Source: an uncultured beta proteobacterium
Lineage (GTDB): Bacteria > Pseudomonadota > Gammaproteobacteria > Burkholderiales > Thiobacillaceae
Direction: 5' to 3'
Length of the DNA: 64,000 nt
Assembly: GCA_963782495.1 (NCBI GenBank)
Contig: CAWAJU010000005.1
Span: 204,260-268,259, forward strand
Position numbers and translations under genes: made by a program. Below, piece by piece: positions 1,347 through 42,810 of the stretch; position 1 is the first letter of the stretch; every line of letters begins with the position of its first letter. The notes beneath the pieces are model-generated. The model ran no database searches. It saw only the letters and a list, made by a program, of their open reading frames with translations, and was not told where the DNA came from.

Positions 1347-3440
1347 ATGCGCAAAACGATACTTGCCACGGCGTTGGCAACACTCACATTTTCTGTTTAC
1401 GCCGCCGAAACATCCGTACTGCCAGCAATCATGGTGAGCGCACCCGCTGAAAACGGCGAACTGGAATCCGCCAAATCCACAGCGGCAAGTGCTGCGGAGC
1501 TGTTTTCCAATTCCGGCGTGGTTTTCTCCAGCGGTGGCGGCATTTCCGCGTTGCCTTCGCTGAACGGCCTTGGCGATGACCGCATCCGTATCCGCGTCGA
1601 TGGCCGGGAAGTCACTTCGGCATGTGGCAATCATATGAACCCGCCGCTTTCTTATGTCGATCCCCAACAGGTCAACAAGATTGATGTTGTCGCCGGCGTC
1701 ACGCCAGTCAGCATGGGCGGCGACAGCATTGCCGGCACGATAAGCGTGAACACGAACGAACCTGTGTTTGCCAAGACACCGGGAGAACTGCATAAGGAAG
1801 GCAACCTGTCGCTGGCTGCACACAGCATTGACCACGGTTACTCCGCTGCAATTGGCGGATCGGTTTCCAGTGACCGCCTGAGCCTGGTCTATGACGCATC
1901 CTGGCGCGCCGCCGACAGCTACAAGGACGGCAACGGCGACAAGGTTCTGGACACCTTGTACAAGGCACGCAACCAGTCACTTACGCTGGGCGCACAGGGC
2001 GACGGCAATCGCCTTGTCTTCCGTGTCGGCGAACAACGGGTTCCTTATCAAGGCTTCCCCAATCAGTTCATGGACATGGTCGATAATCACGGTGTGTTTG
2101 CCAATCTGGCTTATACGGGCGACTTTGCCTGGGGCATACTGGACACACGGCTTTACTGGCAGGACACCAAGCACGAGATGGGCTTCTTTACACCTGAGAA
2201 GCCCGGCATGATGCCGATGAACACGCATGGTGTTGATGTTGGCTACGACATCAAGGCTGACATCCCCCTTTCGGAAACGCATCTGCTGCGCGTTGGTAAC
2301 GAATACCATCGCCTCCGGCTCGATGACTGGTGGCCACCCGTGCCTTCATCGATGATGATGGGTCCGAACACGTTCCGGAACATCAACAACGGCCAGCGCG
2401 ATCGTTTTGCTCTCTATGGCGAGATGGAATCGCGCTGGGACGAAAAATGGACGACGAATGTCGGCCTGCGCCAGGAGTTTGTACGCATGGATACGGGTAC
2501 GGTGCAGCCCTACAACCCCATGGCCAGCATGATGAACGTCGACCCCAACTATGCGGCTGCATTCAATGCACGCGACCGTTCAAAGAGCGACAACAACCTC
2601 GATCTGACTGTCCTGGCGCGTTATACGCCGCAAGTTACCGATACCTATGAGTTCGGCTTTGCGCGCAAAAGCCGTTCGCCCAGCCTGTATGAGCGTTATA
2701 CGTGGGGACGCAACACCATGGACATGACGATGATAGGCTGGTTTGGCGATGCGAATGGTTATGTCGGCGACCCCGATCTGAAGCCGGAGATTGCCAATAC
2801 CATCAACGCGTCGGTCACCTGGAAATCCACCGATGCCAAAGCCTGGGAAGTCAAACTGGCGCCGCATTTTAGCTATGTCCAGGATTACATCGACGCCGAT
2901 GTGATCGGCACCTATCACCCCTACAACATCGCCAGCGTTACCCGTGCCTTGCTGCGTTTTGCCAATCACGACGCACGGCTTTGGGGAATCGATTTGAGCG
3001 GAAACATGCGTATGTGGAACAACGCTCAGTACGGTCATGGACAGATCAAGGGCAGCCTCGCCTTTACCAAAGGCGAACGTACCGATGGCGGCGTCCTGTA
3101 TCACATCATGCCGCTCAACGCGTCAGTCAGCATCGAACAGATGGCCAATGCCTGGACCAACTCGCTGGAGTTGCAACTGATCGACAAGAAAACAAATGTG
3201 GATACACAGCGTTACGAACCCGAAACCGATGGCTATGCACTGGTCAACCTCAGCACCCGTTACCAGTTTAACGACAAGGCCAACATCACCTTTGGCATAC
3301 GCAATCTGTTCGACAAGCAATACGACCTGCCTCTTGGCGGCGTGAGCATTGCCGATCTGAAATCGACCATGAGCGGACCTCTGGCTTCTGTGACAGGGCC
3401 GGGTCGTTCCTTTGAAGCTGGATTGAACATCAAGTTCTGA
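1347..3440 (+). CDS. TonB-dependent outer-membrane receptor
   Basis: 697 aa. Signal peptide (MRKTILATALATLTFSVYA), plug-domain-like N-terminus, and a C-terminal beta-barrel ending in F (GLNIKF), typical of TBDRs. GGAGA lies upstream of the ATG. Confidence 0.9.
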   Translation: MRKTILATALATLTFSVYAAETSVLPAIMVSAPAENGELESAKSTAASAAELFSNSGVVFSSGGGISALPSLNGLGDDRIRIRVDGREVTSACGNHMNPPLSYVDPQQVNKIDVVAGVTPVSMGGDSIAGTISVNTNEPVFAKTPGELHKEGNLSLAAHSIDHGYSAAIGGSVSSDRLSLVYDASWRAADSYKDGNGDKVLDTLYKARNQSLTLGAQGDGNRLVFRVGEQRVPYQGFPNQFMDMVDNHGVFANLAYTGDFAWGILDTRLYWQDTKHEMGFFTPEKPGMMPMNTHGVDVGYDIKADIPLSETHLLRVGNEYHRLRLDDWWPPVPSSMMMGPNTFRNINNGQRDRFALYGEMESRWDEKWTTNVGLRQEFVRMDTGTVQPYNPMASMMNVDPNYAAAFNARDRSKSDNNLDLTVLARYTPQVTDTYEFGFARKSRSPSLYERYTWGRNTMDMTMIGWFGDANGYVGDPDLKPEIANTINASVTWKSTDAKAWEVKLAPHFSYVQDYIDADVIGTYHPYNIASVTRALLRFANHDARLWGIDLSGNMRMWNNAQYGHGQIKGSLAFTKGERTDGGVLYHIMPLNASVSIEQMANAWTNSLELQLIDKKTNVDTQRYEPETDGYALVNLSTRYQFNDKANITFGIRNLFDKQYDLPLGGVSIADLKSTMSGPLASVTGPGRSFEAGLNIKF

Positions 3441-4777: not shown

Positions 4778-4939
4778 GGCGATCTCTCCGTGAGGTTCAG
4801 GCAATCACGCTCAGGCTGCAAAAACGGCGGAATGGTTCCTCAAGCTTCTTGATAGTCCTTTCCGACGGGCTTTGCCAGTTCGACTGGCAATTCAAGCCAG
4901 CGGCCATCGCTCATTGCTATCTTATGCTAAACCCACAAG

Positions 4940-5003
4940 GCGCAACTTCACAAACTCGACCGCCTTCCTCGCCCAACTTTCATTCCTATTGTCGGACCTG
5001 CCA
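4940..5003 (-). repeat. Decayed copy of the thiC 3'-end segment (copy C)
   Basis: CTTCACAAACTCGACCGCCTTCCTC (4946-4970) matches thiC 7426-7452 (CTTCACAAACTCGACCGACTTCACTTCC). GTCGGACCTGCC matches ATCGGACAGGCC further along. It shares the CTTCCTC 2-nt-shorter variant with copy A. Confidence 0.5.
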
Positions 5004-5052
5004 CCGTCTCCAAGGTCACGGAACTAAACTTCCGCAAGAGCGCCTATATGGC

Positions 5053-5535
5053 ATGTTCGGAAAACTTCAAAACAAGCTGCACGACTTTGTCGAAAGCTTC
5101 GCGCCCAGTCCCGAGACCCGCATGCGTCAGGAAATGGCGGCCCTCCAGCAAGCCTGTTGCCAGTTGTTGATGGAGGCGGCGCGACTCAGCGAGGCAAACA
5201 CCCAGCAGAAACGCGCCGTTGTCGCGCAGGTGATGCGGGAGCAGTTCACCATCCAGGAGGCCGATCTCACCGCGATGATGGACACCGCCGGCCGCCCGGA
5301 AAACCGGCTTACCTCCTACTACGACCAGGTGACGCAGATCAACAAGGGCTTCGGCCCCGCGCGCAAGGCGCGTTTCATCGAACAGCTCTGGCGCGTCGCC
5401 ATGGCGGACGGCAACATCGACATGTACGAGGACCAGCTGGTGCGCACGCTGGCCGAGCTGTTGTACGTCCCGCACACCGATTTCATCCTCGCCAAGAATC
5501 GGGTGCAGGCAGGCGTCGCCCCGCAGATGAATTGA
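5053..5535 (+). CDS. TerB-family (tellurite-resistance TerB-like) protein
   Basis: ORF 4849..5535 trimmed to MFGKLQNKL. About 160 aa, with the TerB-like C-terminal block FIEQLWRVAMADGNIDMYEDQLVRTLAELLYV. Confidence 0.7.
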   Translation: MFGKLQNKLHDFVESFAPSPETRMRQEMAALQQACCQLLMEAARLSEANTQQKRAVVAQVMREQFTIQEADLTAMMDTAGRPENRLTSYYDQVTQINKGFGPARKARFIEQLWRVAMADGNIDMYEDQLVRTLAELLYVPHTDFILAKNRVQAGVAPQMN

Positions 5536-5580
5536 CTTGCATCTGCTGACCGAATATTTGAGCTTTCTCAAACCTTCCGA

Positions 5581-5695
5581 TACACCTCGGCCCCCTGCTT
5601 CACAAACTCCACCGACTTCCTCCATGCCTTTCTGCAGCGCCTCTTCATCAGACAGGCCTTACTGGTCAGCGTAGTCGCGCACGTCCTGGGTAATA
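5581..5695 (-). pseudogene. thiC 3'-end remnant (copy A)
   Basis: About 85% identical by eye over about 115 nt to thiC 7408-7522. Translated in the thiC frame it gives [24 protein letters not shown], followed by a 2-nt deletion. It therefore carries both an in-frame stop and a frameshift. Confidence 0.75.
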
Positions 5696-5815
5696 TTTCA
5701 AACAACTCGAGCCCAGCTCCTTGAATTGTCAGGGCATGTCCCTATTGCGGATCGACAACCTGGTCATCCGGGATAATCTATCGGCTGATACCGCATGCTT
5801 GCCTGTGCATGGAGT

Positions 5816-7117
5816 TCAGCGTTTCATCAGATAGACCAGCCTGACGTGCGGCGGCAGGACTGCCGTTTCGGCCACGGTGATGCCGTGGACATGCTTTTTA
5901 GAGGCATAGTCGAACTCGCCGGCCGGCCATGATCCATATCTGCTCTTGTCCGTGGTATTCGGCCCGCCGCACGAAGCGCCATGGGCGTGTTTATCCTGGC
6001 CGGCCCTTACACCGACCTGTGCCAGGTCGGCGGTCCCCATCAGAAACCGGTCGCGCAGGTCCGGGGTGCCTTCTTCGCCATTGCAGATTGTCCAGCCTTC
6101 GGGCGCGATGAGGTGACGACCGCCGGTTTCGTCGAGATGGATTGCGCGCTCGGTGGGATGCCAAGCGATGATGGTTCCAGCCGGCACGCCGTAGGAGCCT
6201 TCCGGCAACGGTGGTGCCTCGTGCTGGGCCAGCAACGCCCGCGACCTGGCGAACTCGGGAGGCAGCAGATTCCAGTAGCTCCGCGCCGTCGCAGAGATGG
6301 GCGCACCAAGCATTTTCAACTCGCCGCTACGCAACAGCGCCAGTGTTTCGATAATGTCCTCCAGTCGGGTGAGCACGGCAGCGCCGGTATAAGGCTCGCC
6401 GTTGCGCCGGAAGCCGCCCGAGGTGGCCACGAATATCAGTTCCACGCTGCTGTCGGTCAAGGCAGTTTTTGCTGTCTGGTCGATCTTTCCGTCGGCACTG
6501 CCGCTGAGAAATGTGGCCCGGAACGCGGCCCTGACCTTGGTCGTCTGCTCCTGGCTCGAACCCATCACCCGTCCGCGTATTGCAAGCCGGCAGCCGTATT
6601 TGATCGCGCTCACATAGTGGGACCCGTAATCCAACAGGAACTGACGCTCGAACGAGTCCGGGCTTAATTCGCCGTCTTCGCCCCGAGGACGTCTTTCCGG
6701 GTCCCAGATCAGGCGTTCATGTCCGAGTATTTCCGTGATATCGCTGGTCCTGCCCTTGGAATCCTGCAAAGCGTAGATCGAATGCGAGTTGCTGCGCTCC
6801 TCCACCGCCTTATCCAAAGCTGCCGAGGCGCTCACAAAACCATAACTGCCCTGGAGATAGGCGGCCAGGAAGTGCGCCTCCTCGCGCGTGGAACTGGCCT
6901 CTTTCAGCTCGAAATGCTCATCTACCGTGAATTCCGATACTTCCTCCATGCCCCTCATCAATCTCGGAATTCTTAACGGGCAATCGCCTGCTCGGCGCTT
7001 CGGCGCCCCGGGATCAGACATGTCCAGCCCGTCTCCCAACCTGAGCAAGCCTTCATTGATAAAGCCCGGATTCACCTGGTATTCATCGCGGCCAATATTC
7101 GGGTTTGTGGCTGACAT
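5816..7117 (-). CDS. MACPF-like pore-forming domain protein with C-terminal phage tail-collar-like domain
   Basis: ORF 5816..7204. Start preferred at ATG 7117 (GGAGGA 4-5 nt upstream); ATG 7129 is the alternative. YGSHYVSAIKYGCRL fits the MACPF signature (Y/W)G(T/S)H(F/Y)x6G(G). The C-terminus (PEGWTICNGEEGTPDLRDRFLMG ... PPHVRLVYLMKR) resembles tail-collar/MdpB-type domains. Confidence 0.7.
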   Translation of the reverse strand: MSATNPNIGRDEYQVNPGFINEGLLRLGDGLDMSDPGAPKRRAGDCPLRIPRLMRGMEEVSEFTVDEHFELKEASSTREEAHFLAAYLQGSYGFVSASAALDKAVEERSNSHSIYALQDSKGRTSDITEILGHERLIWDPERRPRGEDGELSPDSFERQFLLDYGSHYVSAIKYGCRLAIRGRVMGSSQEQTTKVRAAFRATFLSGSADGKIDQTAKTALTDSSVELIFVATSGGFRRNGEPYTGAAVLTRLEDIIETLALLRSGELKMLGAPISATARSYWNLLPPEFARSRALLAQHEAPPLPEGSYGVPAGTIIAWHPTERAIHLDETGGRHLIAPEGWTICNGEEGTPDLRDRFLMGTADLAQVGVRAGQDKHAHGASCGGPNTTDKSRYGSWPAGEFDYASKKHVHGITVAETAVLPPHVRLVYLMKR

Positions 7118-7394
7118 GTCGTCCTCCATTTGTAAGTTGAGTCCAAGTGAACGGAATCTGCCAGGCGCCGCAGCTCGTTTTGCGCATGAATCGATATTCG
7201 GCAAATATCGACAATAATCCGTATAGCACGCGCTATTTTCCGGCCTCGCAGTGCGACTTCACCGTCTGGCTCGCCATCCCCCTCTACAGGTCCCACTTTC
7301 GCTGATGTCCTGCTTGGCAGCGAGGTCTCGCACTCCCCGGGCAGGCCCAATTTTACTTGGCGGCAACTGTGCCTCGATTGTTGTCGTGGGTACC

Positions 7395-9452
<2,058 letters not shown>

Positions 9453-9537
9453 GAAAGTAGCGGAAATATGGAATAATTGCAAGATAAGACCCTACTTAAC
9501 TGATTGAATTTTCGAAATTTAAGCGGAGCTGGAACTG

Positions 9538-10191
9538 ATGGATATTGAGCAGGTGCGCTACAAGATGGTCGAACAGCAAATCCGTCCCTGGGAGGTATTG
9601 GATCCGGATGTGCTGGAACTTCTCATCAAGATCAAACGGGAAGAATTCGTCCCCGGACCCTACCGCTCCCTGGCCTTCGTGGATATGGAAATCCCGCTTG
9701 GCCACGGTGAACAGATGTGGTCACCCAAGCTCGAAGCCCGCGCCCTGCAGGAGTTGCAACTGAAAAAACCCGACAAGGTGCTGGAAGTAGGCACTGGCAG
9801 TGGCTATCTCACCGCCTTGCTCGCCTCGCTCGCGGCCCATGTGCGCTCGGTGGATTGCATCGGCGAATTCGTCGCCGATGCAAGCAAAAAACTCGCGGCC
9901 CATGGCTTTGGGAATGTCACTCTTGAAACGGGCGACGGCGCCAGCGGCTGGCCTGCACATGGCCCTTATGACGCCATCGTCATGACTGGTTCGTTGCCCT
10001 TGCTGCCGGACGCACTGCCCAAGCAACTGGCCCCGGGCGGACGGCTGTTCGTGATCCTGGGCGAAGGGCCGATCATGCAGGCTACCCTGTTCACTTGCGT
10101 TGCGCCGGGTTCCTACCGCCGTACGGTGCTGTTCGAAACCCTGGTCAAGTCACTGGCACATGCGGCCCAACCGGAACGTTTCGTCTTCTAG
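9538..10191 (+). CDS. Protein-L-isoaspartate O-methyltransferase family protein
   Basis: 217 aa. SAM-binding motif VLEVGTGSGYLTALLA and overall COG2518-like sequence. Confidence 0.8.
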   Translation: MDIEQVRYKMVEQQIRPWEVLDPDVLELLIKIKREEFVPGPYRSLAFVDMEIPLGHGEQMWSPKLEARALQELQLKKPDKVLEVGTGSGYLTALLASLAAHVRSVDCIGEFVADASKKLAAHGFGNVTLETGDGASGWPAHGPYDAIVMTGSLPLLPDALPKQLAPGGRLFVILGEGPIMQATLFTCVAPGSYRRTVLFETLVKSLAHAAQPERFVF

Positions 10192-42328: not shown

Positions 42329-42376
42329 AATCCGAACATCAAATTATATCTACAACATATTGAATTTATGTGAATT

Positions 42377-42694
42377 GGATGAGTCAACCTGTAAGCCGGG
42401 TTCTGTCATGGACAGTCATTCCTCTAGACCTGCCATCGCTGGCGGGTTCAAGCCACCTACCCGCAGACTCAGCGAGCCGCTTCGTCGCCTGCCTATTTGG
42501 TGTTGCTCCGGATGGAGGTTGCCGCGTTTCACCCTTTGTAATAGTGCCGCGATAAACTGCGGTAATCGCAAAGACTCGTCTCTGTGGCCCTGTTCCTCGC
42601 CTCGCGGCGTACGGCCGTTAGCCGTCATCCTGCTCTGCGGAGCCCGGACTTTCCTCTGCCGGCGTATCGTCGGCAGCGACTGTCCAGTCAACTC
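42377..42694 (-). ncRNA. rnpB: RNase P RNA (bacterial type A)
   Basis: Minus strand reads GAGTTGACTGGACAGTCGCTGCCG...GAGGAAAGTCCGGGCTCC...GGGTGAAA...ACAGAACCCGGCTTACAGGTTGACTC. This matches the universally conserved RNase P blocks and P1 pairing. The two ORFs called here are artefacts. Confidence 0.85.
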
Positions 42695-42810
42695 ACCCAC
42701 ATTTATTATAGGGTTGATTAATGGAATGCGATTAGCTAATGATAAGTATGGGGCCGATGCGATGACTCCTAGTTGACTTTCTCGGACACACAAAAATAGG
42801 AGAATTCAAA

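Follow-up and report, generated by a model that had tools for sequence, protein, structure and literature searches.

A conserved protein family joining a predicted MACPF/CDC-fold domain to a phage-type fibre tip, with one member on a mobile cassette downstream of thiC

Introduction

The Bacteroidales secreted antimicrobial proteins (BSAPs) are surface lipoproteins that combine a MACPF domain with a C-terminal domain that gives them their specificity (PMC12853789). The groups named in their classification comprise DUF5648 propellers, BT_3439 D2/D3 domains and BACON N-terminal domains, and nowhere does the main text speak of a tail, collar, fibre, phage or trimer (PMC12853789). Here we describe a gene encoding a protein of 433 amino acids in which a predicted MACPF/CDC-fold domain is followed by a domain related to the tips of phage fibres. 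It lies on the minus strand of a 64,000-nucleotide stretch of chromosomal DNA, hereafter the window, from an uncultured Thiobacillaceae-like betaproteobacterium (assembly GCA_963782495.1, contig CAWAJU010000005.1, positions 204,260 to 268,259). The gene was brought to attention by an original prediction, made by a model from the sequence letters and a list of open reading frames, which took it for a MACPF-signature protein fused to a tail-collar-like domain.

In several respects the family to which this protein belongs resembles the BSAPs. Many of its members carry a leader and a tether, then the MACPF domain and then a putative specificity domain at the C-terminus, and the gene is accessory and strain-variable, standing alone without an immunity gene. 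The differences concern the C-terminal domain, which is here a phage fibre tip, probably trimeric with HxH metal sites; the window copy, which has no lipoprotein signal; the host, a Thiobacillaceae-like betaproteobacterium, with the family spanning several phyla including metagenome-assembled genomes (MAGs) of Bacteroidetes; and the MACPF domain itself, which is too divergent for the Pfam model PF01823, so that surveys seeded with this model would miss it. Because it has no lipoprotein signal and its host does not belong to the Bacteroidales, the window protein is not a BSAP in the strict sense.

A comparable layout, with a MACPF domain of about 300 residues followed by a C-terminal binding domain, is found in Plu-MACPF (2qp2), GNIP1Aa (6fbm) and Mpf2Ba1 (8b6u). 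These three match the protein studied here by fold and by profile, although at a sequence identity of only 11-14%. Insect cells are the target of their C-terminal domains, monomeric modules of the beta-prism or beta-sandwich type, in place of which the present protein has a fibre tip. Together with the BSAPs they would be the closest functional analogues, and by this analogy the MACPF domain would do the damage while the C-terminal domain would set the specificity.

Results and discussion

The N-terminal domain is predicted to adopt the MACPF/CDC fold

We built an AlphaFold2 model from the family alignment, a predicted and not a solved structure, which reached a mean predicted local distance difference test score (pLDDT) of 82.4. 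When the model was compared with the PDB using Foldseek, the best 40 matches were all MACPF/CDC proteins (E 1e-5 to 8e-3, probability at least 0.90), as was every match with E <1e-2; TgPLP1, intermedilysin, perfringolysin O, C8, pleurotolysin B, perforin, Plu-MACPF, Mpf2Ba1 and GNIP1Aa are among them. In a Foldseek comparison of the full-length model with the viral models of BFVD, six giant-virus MACPF proteins rank first. A profile of the N-terminal domain searched against the PDB gave a consistent picture: all 15 matches are MACPF/CDC proteins, including TgPLP1 (1.2e-3), Mpf2Ba1, astrotactin-2, CDCs, perforin and GNIP1Aa, and in every case the alignment lies around the signature strand. PF01823 is touched by 18 of 30 full-length homologues (E up to 1; best 2.4e-7) and the Thiol_cytolysin model by seven, and for one homologue a precomputed PF01823 match is on record. 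The MACPF/CDC fold proposed by the original prediction is thus upheld by the AlphaFold2 model with its Foldseek matches, by the N-domain profile and by the PF01823 matches of the homologues.

The proposal had started from a peptide, FLLDYGSHYVSAIKYGCRLAIRG (residues 160-182), that was read as a MACPF-like signature with cysteine in place of the last glycine. Such a signature is indeed present. It reads Y164-G-S-H-Y-x6-G175-C176, and G165, H167 and G175 are invariant in the 30 homologues; the last position is a tyrosine in the family consensus, a cysteine in the window protein and a leucine in some members. In the model the YGSHY segment opens a long strand formed by residues 167-185. The order of elements around it is strand 70-73, helices 77-110, strand 111-126, strand 167-185, helices 189-220 and strand 225-232. 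The two helical clusters TMH1 and TMH2, which the original prediction had proposed to look for, are therefore found flanking the signature strand according to the DSSP assignment of the model, as in the superfamily topology of a bent, four-stranded antiparallel central sheet whose helical clusters lie between strands 1 and 2 and between strands 3 and 4. Both clusters are retained among members that are only 25-30% identical.

The sequences of the two clusters were also analysed for periodicity. In the first half of TMH1 (residues 77-92) the hydrophobic moment is 1.03 at period 2 as against 0.70 at period 3.6, and in the first half of TMH2 (residues 189-203) it is 1.29 as against a helical value of 0.73. 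A control helix, residues 252-264, behaves in the opposite way, with a moment of 0.46 at period 2 and a helical moment of 1.76. The beta-type periodicity of the two first halves would fit segments that refold into membrane hairpins, an indication that is suggestive only.

The superfamily fold and helical clusters of about 32-34 residues, along with the Thiol_cytolysin matches, are likenesses to the CDCs and to the CDC-like proteins of Bacteroidota (8g32). The C-terminal membrane-binding domain of CDCs is domain 4 with its undecapeptide, whereas the C-terminal domain here is a phage fibre tip. CDC-like proteins also have a partner gene, whereas no conserved neighbour was found here in 10 contexts.

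The C-terminal domain is related to the tips of phage and PVC fibres

A single-sequence phmmer search with the window protein matched the Photorhabdus PVC fibre protein Pvc13 (9qgo, E 6e-5). With a profile of the C-terminal domain searched against the PDB the match to 9qgo reached 1.8e-14, followed by the prophage fibre of Bizionia argentinensis (6ov6, 1.3e-10) and the fibre 9nxk (3.6e-4), and the tip of T4 gp37 was matched weakly over the region of the first HxH motif. Tail-fibre families of the PHROG collection were matched at 1.5e-7. In IMG/VR, a relative of the domain is encoded in 430 of 600 candidate stretches. For the best 80 stretches the match is confined to residues 264-433, mostly 305-432, and in none of these 80 was the MACPF part matched, though a MACPF-signature pattern was scanned as well. 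Deposited phage genomes gave two matches, both to the C-terminal domain only and annotated as tail collar or tail protein, and in BFVD the full-length model also matches a phage collar protein (E 8e-3). The Pfam collar model PF07484 is touched only weakly, by 22 of the 30 homologues (best E 0.027).

The original prediction had arrived at a collar-like C-terminus from the peptides GTIIAWHP, PEGWTICNGEEGTPDLRDRFLMG (residues 339-361) and a terminal PPHVRLVYLMKR. All of the peptides that it quoted, including that of the MACPF signature, are present in the protein, and the collar-like assignment is supported by the profile matches to 9qgo, 6ov6 and 9nxk, by the PHROG families and by the 430 viral stretches. 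Within the core motif (Table 1) the residues P339, G341, W342, C345, G347, P352, L354 and F358 are invariant.

With Pvc13 (9qgo, 8on5), 6ov6 and T4 gp12, gp10 and gp37 the domain shares the motif PxGWxxC[DN]GxxGTP[DN]L[RK]xxF, the HxH motifs and a C-terminal strand of the form PP-x-V-x-L-x-[YF]-I-M-K, and it would also share with them the role of a distal target-recognition module. The setting of the domain is different. In the fibres it ends a long, trimeric, baseplate-attached structure, whereas here a linker of 12 residues joins it to a predicted pore-forming domain, with no shaft and no particle. Four fibre homologues in the PDB (9qgo, 6ov6, 9nxk and 2xgf) have three chains per entry, which is consistent with trimeric fibre tips.

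The fusion defines a previously undescribed family

In order to place the window protein within a wider family we performed an exhaustive profile search of 1.84 billion representative sequences, which returned 191 proteins at E <1e-30, and classified the 179 that were fetched using separate hidden Markov models for the two domains. In 137 of the 179 the MACPF domain is followed by the collar-type domain, down to an identity of 25-30%, so that the family comprises well over 100 sequence clusters; a handful are MACPF-only proteins that look truncated. Exactly three collar domains in tandem are present in 26 of the 179 (e.g. P0082, P0083, P0103, P0111, P0148, P0157 and P0164), and one protein of 1062 amino acids, P0036, has the order MACPF-collar-collar-MACPF-collar. 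From their domain order, the triple-collar proteins look like single-chain pseudo-trimers. That the domain recurs in threes agrees with a trimeric state, as the solved structures of fibre tips suggest, or with a functional unit of three domains.

Named sources include Amphritea, Porticoccus, Vicinamibacterales, Desulfobacterales, Desulfococcus multivorans, Planctomycetota and MAGs of Bacteroidetes. The original prediction, which had suggested mapping how the fusion is distributed, considered bacterial MACPF proteins to be uncommon outside Bacteroidota, Chlamydiae and Photorhabdus. For this family that does not hold, as the fusion is spread over several bacterial phyla. A scan of a genome collection gave at least two full-length loci among the matches listed, and five loci were found in a metagenome scan with a MACPF-only alignment of seven sequences. 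No full-length MACPF-collar match was present in IMG/VR or in deposited phage genomes, and a plasmid collection gave no match.

Several observations show that the reading frame is more than a chance product. Full-length homologues exist, with E down to 1e-246, and the ratio of nonsynonymous to synonymous substitution rates (dN/dS) is 0.15 between the window and the homologous contig L135 and 0.21 between the window and the contig L133, with similar values for both domains. These ratios indicate that the gene is kept by purifying selection. The frame is intact in four independent contigs.

Existing names recognise one half of the protein each, since one homologue is called 'MACPF domain-containing' in UniRef and another 'phage tail protein' at NCBI. 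The curated thresholds of PF01823 and PF07484 miss the family, which is consequently absent from existing MACPF censuses. In the literature we found no paper that describes the combination of MACPF with tail collar, nor a tail-collar toxin fusion. Judged by the sequences, the union of a MACPF domain with a fibre tip is a real, conserved and previously undescribed family, and a phage-derived targeting domain on a putative MACPF toxin would be unprecedented.

Start of the gene and export signals

The open reading frame has a maximal extent from 5816 to 7204 on the minus strand, where it opens at a TTG and covers 462 codons; from the ATG at 7117 it encodes an intact protein of 433 amino acids followed by a stop. 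The latter start is supported by the GGAGG located five nucleotides before it, by the gene callers, which chose the same ATG on the source contig, and by the fact that another in-frame ATG upstream (7129) is not conserved, being replaced by TTG in the 85%-identical homologue on L133. The 29 in-frame codons that precede the start are not hydrophobic and are closed by a stop, and from this we conclude that the window protein has no signal peptide, as the original prediction had already read for its preferred start.

Across the family the picture is mixed. Among 113 members with a near-complete N-terminus, 15 match a strict lipobox pattern, a signal-like leader of another kind is present in 27 and 69 have none, and several of the 27 leaders also end in a cysteine. 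In the lipoprotein forms a low-complexity tether of 30-60 residues stands ahead of the MACPF domain, as it does in the BSAPs. The leaderless fraction of 61% is an upper bound, since a start in Amphritea is mis-called: the annotated start of EHS89_14640 of Amphritea balenae (RQXV01000008; L002, 7842-8001) is probably wrong, and its upstream extension encodes a lipoprotein signal (…FFLVAC-SEPQ…). By reading of the DNA, the window copy together with those of L133 and L135, and the copies of L003, L005 and L137, are leaderless.

A candidate targeted pore-forming toxin and the alternatives

We hold it to be fairly probable, though well short of certain, that the gene encodes a receptor-targeted pore-forming toxin with a phage-derived receptor-binding domain. 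We infer pore formation, trimerisation, receptor binding, the identity of the target and the export of the leaderless form along the following lines. The C-terminal domain would assemble as a trimer around metal ions held by the two HxH motifs and would dock the protein on a surface receptor of another cell. This target cell would most likely be a bacterium, because it is for binding to the envelopes of bacteria that the class of fibre-tip domains evolved. Docking would be followed by oligomerisation of the MACPF domains, and TMH1 (77-110) and TMH2 (189-220) would refold to beta-hairpins and insert as a beta-barrel pore. For the family at large, the signal or lipobox leaders of 42 of the 113 near-complete members favour a role outside the cell. 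A leaderless form would leave the producing cell by lysis, in vesicles or by another secretion route. The gene itself is a stand-alone accessory gene without an immunity or helper partner, and it moves horizontally.

If the inferred function is true, the specificity of the toxin would be re-programmable by fibre-tip swaps, in the way that such swaps reprogrammed PVC fibres (PMC10097599). Moreover, BSAP-like antagonism by MACPF proteins would then reach from the Bacteroidales of the gut to environmental Proteobacteria, Desulfobacterota, Acidobacteriota and Planctomycetota. The architecture also poses the question of how a probably trimeric targeting domain feeds a ring-forming MACPF domain.

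A number of points weigh against such a toxin. The window protein itself has no Pfam match even at E up to 10 and no NCBIfam match, so that the Pfam check proposed by the original prediction fails on this protein for PF01823 and PF07484 alike. The template modelling scores (TM-scores) against solved MACPF structures are low, 0.25-0.37 in Foldseek. The second glycine of the GG motif is absent throughout the family, and no clear beta periodicity is seen in the second halves of TMH1 and TMH2. A monomer model of the C-terminal domain (pLDDT 82) has 6ov6 and the PVC fibre 8on5 as its six best PDB matches, at E 0.06-0.5, which is below significance, and a TM-score of about 0.3. Should the domain form an intertwined trimer, as suggested by the three-chain entries, a monomer would probably serve badly as a query. 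A C-terminal domain that has to be trimeric is also of awkward geometry for a MACPF ring of 10-30 subunits, an arrangement for which we found no precedent. A signal peptide is absent from the window protein and from several independent relatives in which the DNA was checked, and as the window protein is leaderless, a role as an extracellular toxin needs a further release route. Some bacterial MACPF proteins, Plu-MACPF for example, reportedly had no lytic activity when tested, and a target, a receptor or a killing phenotype is known for no member of the family.

Some of these same points would favour a non-lytic surface binder, in which the MACPF fold would serve in oligomerisation or in association with membranes instead of pore formation, and the fibre tip would adhere to cells, prey or a polysaccharide matrix. 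We consider this unlikely. MACPF-fold proteins without lytic activity are said to exist, namely the astrotactins and, under the conditions tested, Plu-MACPF. The missing second glycine and the beta-type periodicity of only half of each helical cluster would suit such a protein, and the lipoprotein tethers of many members would hold it on the surface of the producer like an adhesin. Yet G165, H167 and G175 are invariant, both helical clusters are kept at 25-30% identity, and dN/dS is equally low in the MACPF and the binding halves. The BSAPs, moreover, are likewise tethered surface lipoproteins and nevertheless bactericidal (PMC12853789).

We give somewhat less credence still to a role of the leaderless members as cytoplasmic sensors in abortive infection. 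There the fibre-tip domain would co-assemble with, or be titrated by, newly made phage fibre subunits of the same trimerisation fold, which would free the MACPF domain to open holes in the inner membrane from within, with the death of the infected cell as the outcome. The window protein and several independent members have no signal peptide; the gene is single, self-contained, patchy in distribution and recently transferred, with transposases adjoining it in L135; and its C-terminal domain, being homologous to a part carried by very many phages, could serve in sensing. Pore formers are also known from bacterial defence, such as gasdermins and the Pepco and EACC1 modules (PMC12642450). Against this stand the 42 of 113 members that are exported or lipid-anchored and thus unfit for a cytoplasmic sensor. 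PADLOC gave no defence-system match for the window protein, the literature search found no anti-phage defence protein with a MACPF domain, and the neighbours of the gene are mostly housekeeping, with no family shared between any of the 10 contexts and hence no conserved protease or sensor partner. Were it true, bacterial immunity would have its first perforin-type effector and its first defence that senses the assembly of tail fibres. The original prediction had named a toxin, an inter-bacterial weapon and an abortive-infection pore former as its options, and the last has the least support of the three.

That the gene is prophage debris, a decaying tail-fibre fragment fused by chance to an unrelated frame and without function, is most improbable and effectively refuted by conservation and purifying selection, for although the C-terminal domain is phage-like and one homologue is annotated 'phage tail protein', no phage genes lie nearby, no full-length match is found in IMG/VR or phage genomes, at least 137 proteins have the same layout down to 25-30% identity, and the frame is intact in four independent contigs with dN/dS of 0.15-0.21.

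Table 1. Features of the gene, the encoded protein and the thiC locus, in window coordinates
Feature	Position	Strand	Basis
Complete gene: MACPF domain, linker and fibre-tip domain	5816..7117	-	Open reading frame, gene call, full-length homologues, dN/dS
MACPF/CDC-fold domain (predicted), residues 1-298	6224..7117	-	AlphaFold2 model, Foldseek against PDB and BFVD, N-domain profile against PDB
Helical cluster TMH1, residues 77-110, leading into central-sheet strand 111-126	6788..6889	-	DSSP of the model
MACPF signature YGSHYVSAIKYGC, residues 164-176	6590..6628	-	Conservation in homologues; aligned to the signature region of perforin, TgPLP1 and Mpf2Ba1
Helical cluster TMH2, residues 189-220, between strands 167-185 and 225-232	6458..6553	-	DSSP of the model
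Proline-rich linker, residues 299-310	6188..6223	-	pLDDT <50 at residues 300-309
Phage fibre-tip ('collar'-type) domain, residues 311-433	5819..6187	-	Profile against PDB, PHROGs, IMG/VR, phage genomes
Core fibre-tip motif PEGWTICNGEEGTPDLRDRF, residues 339-358	6044..6103	-	Conservation in homologues; residue-by-residue alignment to Pvc13
First HxH motif, H377-A-H379	5981..5989	-	Both histidines invariant in 30 homologues
Second HxH motif, H409-V-H411	5885..5893	-	At least 90% conserved; aligns to HDH of Pvc13 and HSH of 6ov6
Shine-Dalgarno sequence GGAGG, 5 nt before the ATG at 7117	7123..7127	-	Sequence; conserved in L133 and L135
Upstream leader of about 98 bp travelling with the gene, holding a palindrome at 7191-7211	7118..7215	-	Homology with L133
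Mobile cassette of about 1.83 kb: spacer, leader, gene, 118-bp tail, thiC-like remnant	5568..7393	-	Identity to L135; absent in L134
Left direct repeat, functional thiC 3' end	7394..7526	-	Repeat search; alignment
Right direct repeat, degenerate thiC 3' end, cassette end	5567..5697	-	Repeat search; alignment; homology of L135, L141 and L142 ends at 5568
thiC, upstream neighbour and target of the insertion, separate from the studied gene	7395..9326	-	Pfam ThiC_Rad_SAM; homologues
Thiamine pyrophosphate (TPP) riboswitch upstream of thiC	9354-9451	-	Rfam

The upstream leader and transcription

The homologue on L133, which is 85% identical, shares with the window only the segment from 7215 to 5816, that is the gene and its 98-bp leader up to the stop codon. 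Its genomic context is a different one, and the unrelated gene that precedes it there we take, from its sequence, to be radical-SAM-like. The leader contains a palindrome, TCGATATT-N5-AATATCGA on the minus strand, which is a perfect inverted repeat of 8 bp with a core partly conserved in L133, and which may be a putative operator or promoter element. A scan of positions 5300-9700 revealed no sigma-70-like promoter upstream of the gene on the minus strand and no terminator between thiC and the gene. Read-through into the gene from the riboswitch-controlled thiC is possible.

A recently transferred cassette at the 3' end of thiC

The genes of the locus are arranged in the order ExbB-ExbD, TonB-dependent receptor, UppP, small protein, TerB, the studied gene, thiC, PCMT, rhodanese, TolC and WaaA. 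thiC lies 277 bp upstream of the studied gene, and its closest named relatives are from Thiobacillaceae MAGs. The original prediction had the studied gene sitting alone in a cassette next to thiC, a description that is confirmed and can now be sharpened, as a copy of the thiC 3' end stands on either side of the cassette. These direct repeats correspond to the last 133 bp or so of thiC and are 82-85% identical; the degenerate copy carries an in-frame stop and a 2-bp deletion. No recombinase gene is held by the cassette.

Comparison with related contigs distinguishes three lineages. In lineage A, the window, the cassette is present and followed by TerB. In lineage B (L135, L141 and L142) it is present with the same defective remnant, next to a thiC whose DNA is 86-87% identical to that of the window, and the DNA downstream differs, with transposases in L135 and a hemerythrin gene in L141. 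Two contigs of lineage B come from the same sample as the window. In lineage C (L134) the site is empty, thiC being followed by the small protein and UppP; here the thiC DNA is 87.7% identical to that of the window and the protein 95%. The repeat copies of L135 are located at 6799-6932 and 8628-8760.

The homology between the window and lineage B stops exactly at 5568, the end of the remnant. The studied gene shows an identity of 98.2-98.5% between lineages A and B, as compared to 86-87% for thiC, the cassette is 98.5% identical, and between the window and L135 the synonymous divergence (dS) is 0.044 for the studied gene versus 0.659 for thiC. In a sliding comparison with L135 the identity is 97-100% from about 7310 to 5568, 91-95% from the thiC stop to about 7310, and 71-97% within thiC. 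As the cassette is near-identical and thiC divergent, the transfer between the lineages must be far more recent than their split and into the same site, and the sequence comparison thus points to a recent horizontal transfer of the cassette. Two routes of insertion fit, either a Campbell-type insertion of a circle with a thiC-like arm or recombination at the thiC 3' end by a helper recombinase. The cassette may be a mobile unit without a recombinase, entering related thiC loci with its own thiC 3' end as a homology or attachment (att) arm. It illustrates cleanly how genes have recently passed between lineages that occur together, and may be an unusual, small mobile unit.

An attempt to identify the native copy of the thiC 3' end by means of the empty-site relative was given up, as the alignment does not discriminate between the two. 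We also rejected the idea that a duplicated 3' end of the preceding gene accompanies the cassette everywhere, because flanking direct repeats are absent in eight other contexts; they occur only at the thiC loci and, in the form of a palindromic intergenic repeat, in Desulfococcus.

In its syntenic region L134 lacks both the TonB-dependent receptor gene (1347-3440) and the TerB gene (4849-5535) of the window, which marks the stretch downstream of thiC as a hot spot of gene gain and loss. The transposases downstream of thiC in L135 are IS630-like and IS4/IS5-like. In L141 (6210-7512) the studied gene is called as two pieces of 406 and 30 amino acids, which reflects a frameshift or an assembly error near its 3' end. 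Apart from the TPP riboswitch, the only Rfam match in the window is a class A RNase P RNA at 42376-42695 on the minus strand.

Neighbourhoods at other loci

To survey the surroundings of the gene elsewhere, the open reading frames neighbouring it in 10 independent contexts were compared by all-against-all BLAST, and no neighbour family was shared among these contexts. The idea of a conserved partner gene, be it for immunity, a protease, a chaperone or secretion, was dropped on this basis. Gene lists annotated with Pfam show mostly housekeeping neighbours. In Desulfococcus multivorans (CP015381, L005) the gene follows one for a Tle1-like (PF09994) lipase. The pair formed there by the lipase and the MACPF-collar gene is bracketed by a repeat of 103 bp (6227-6329 and 9341-9441 of L005), whose copies are 86% identical and contain an internal palindrome; it could be an element of the repetitive extragenic palindromic (REP) or miniature inverted-repeat transposable element (MITE) kind, or an insertion scar.

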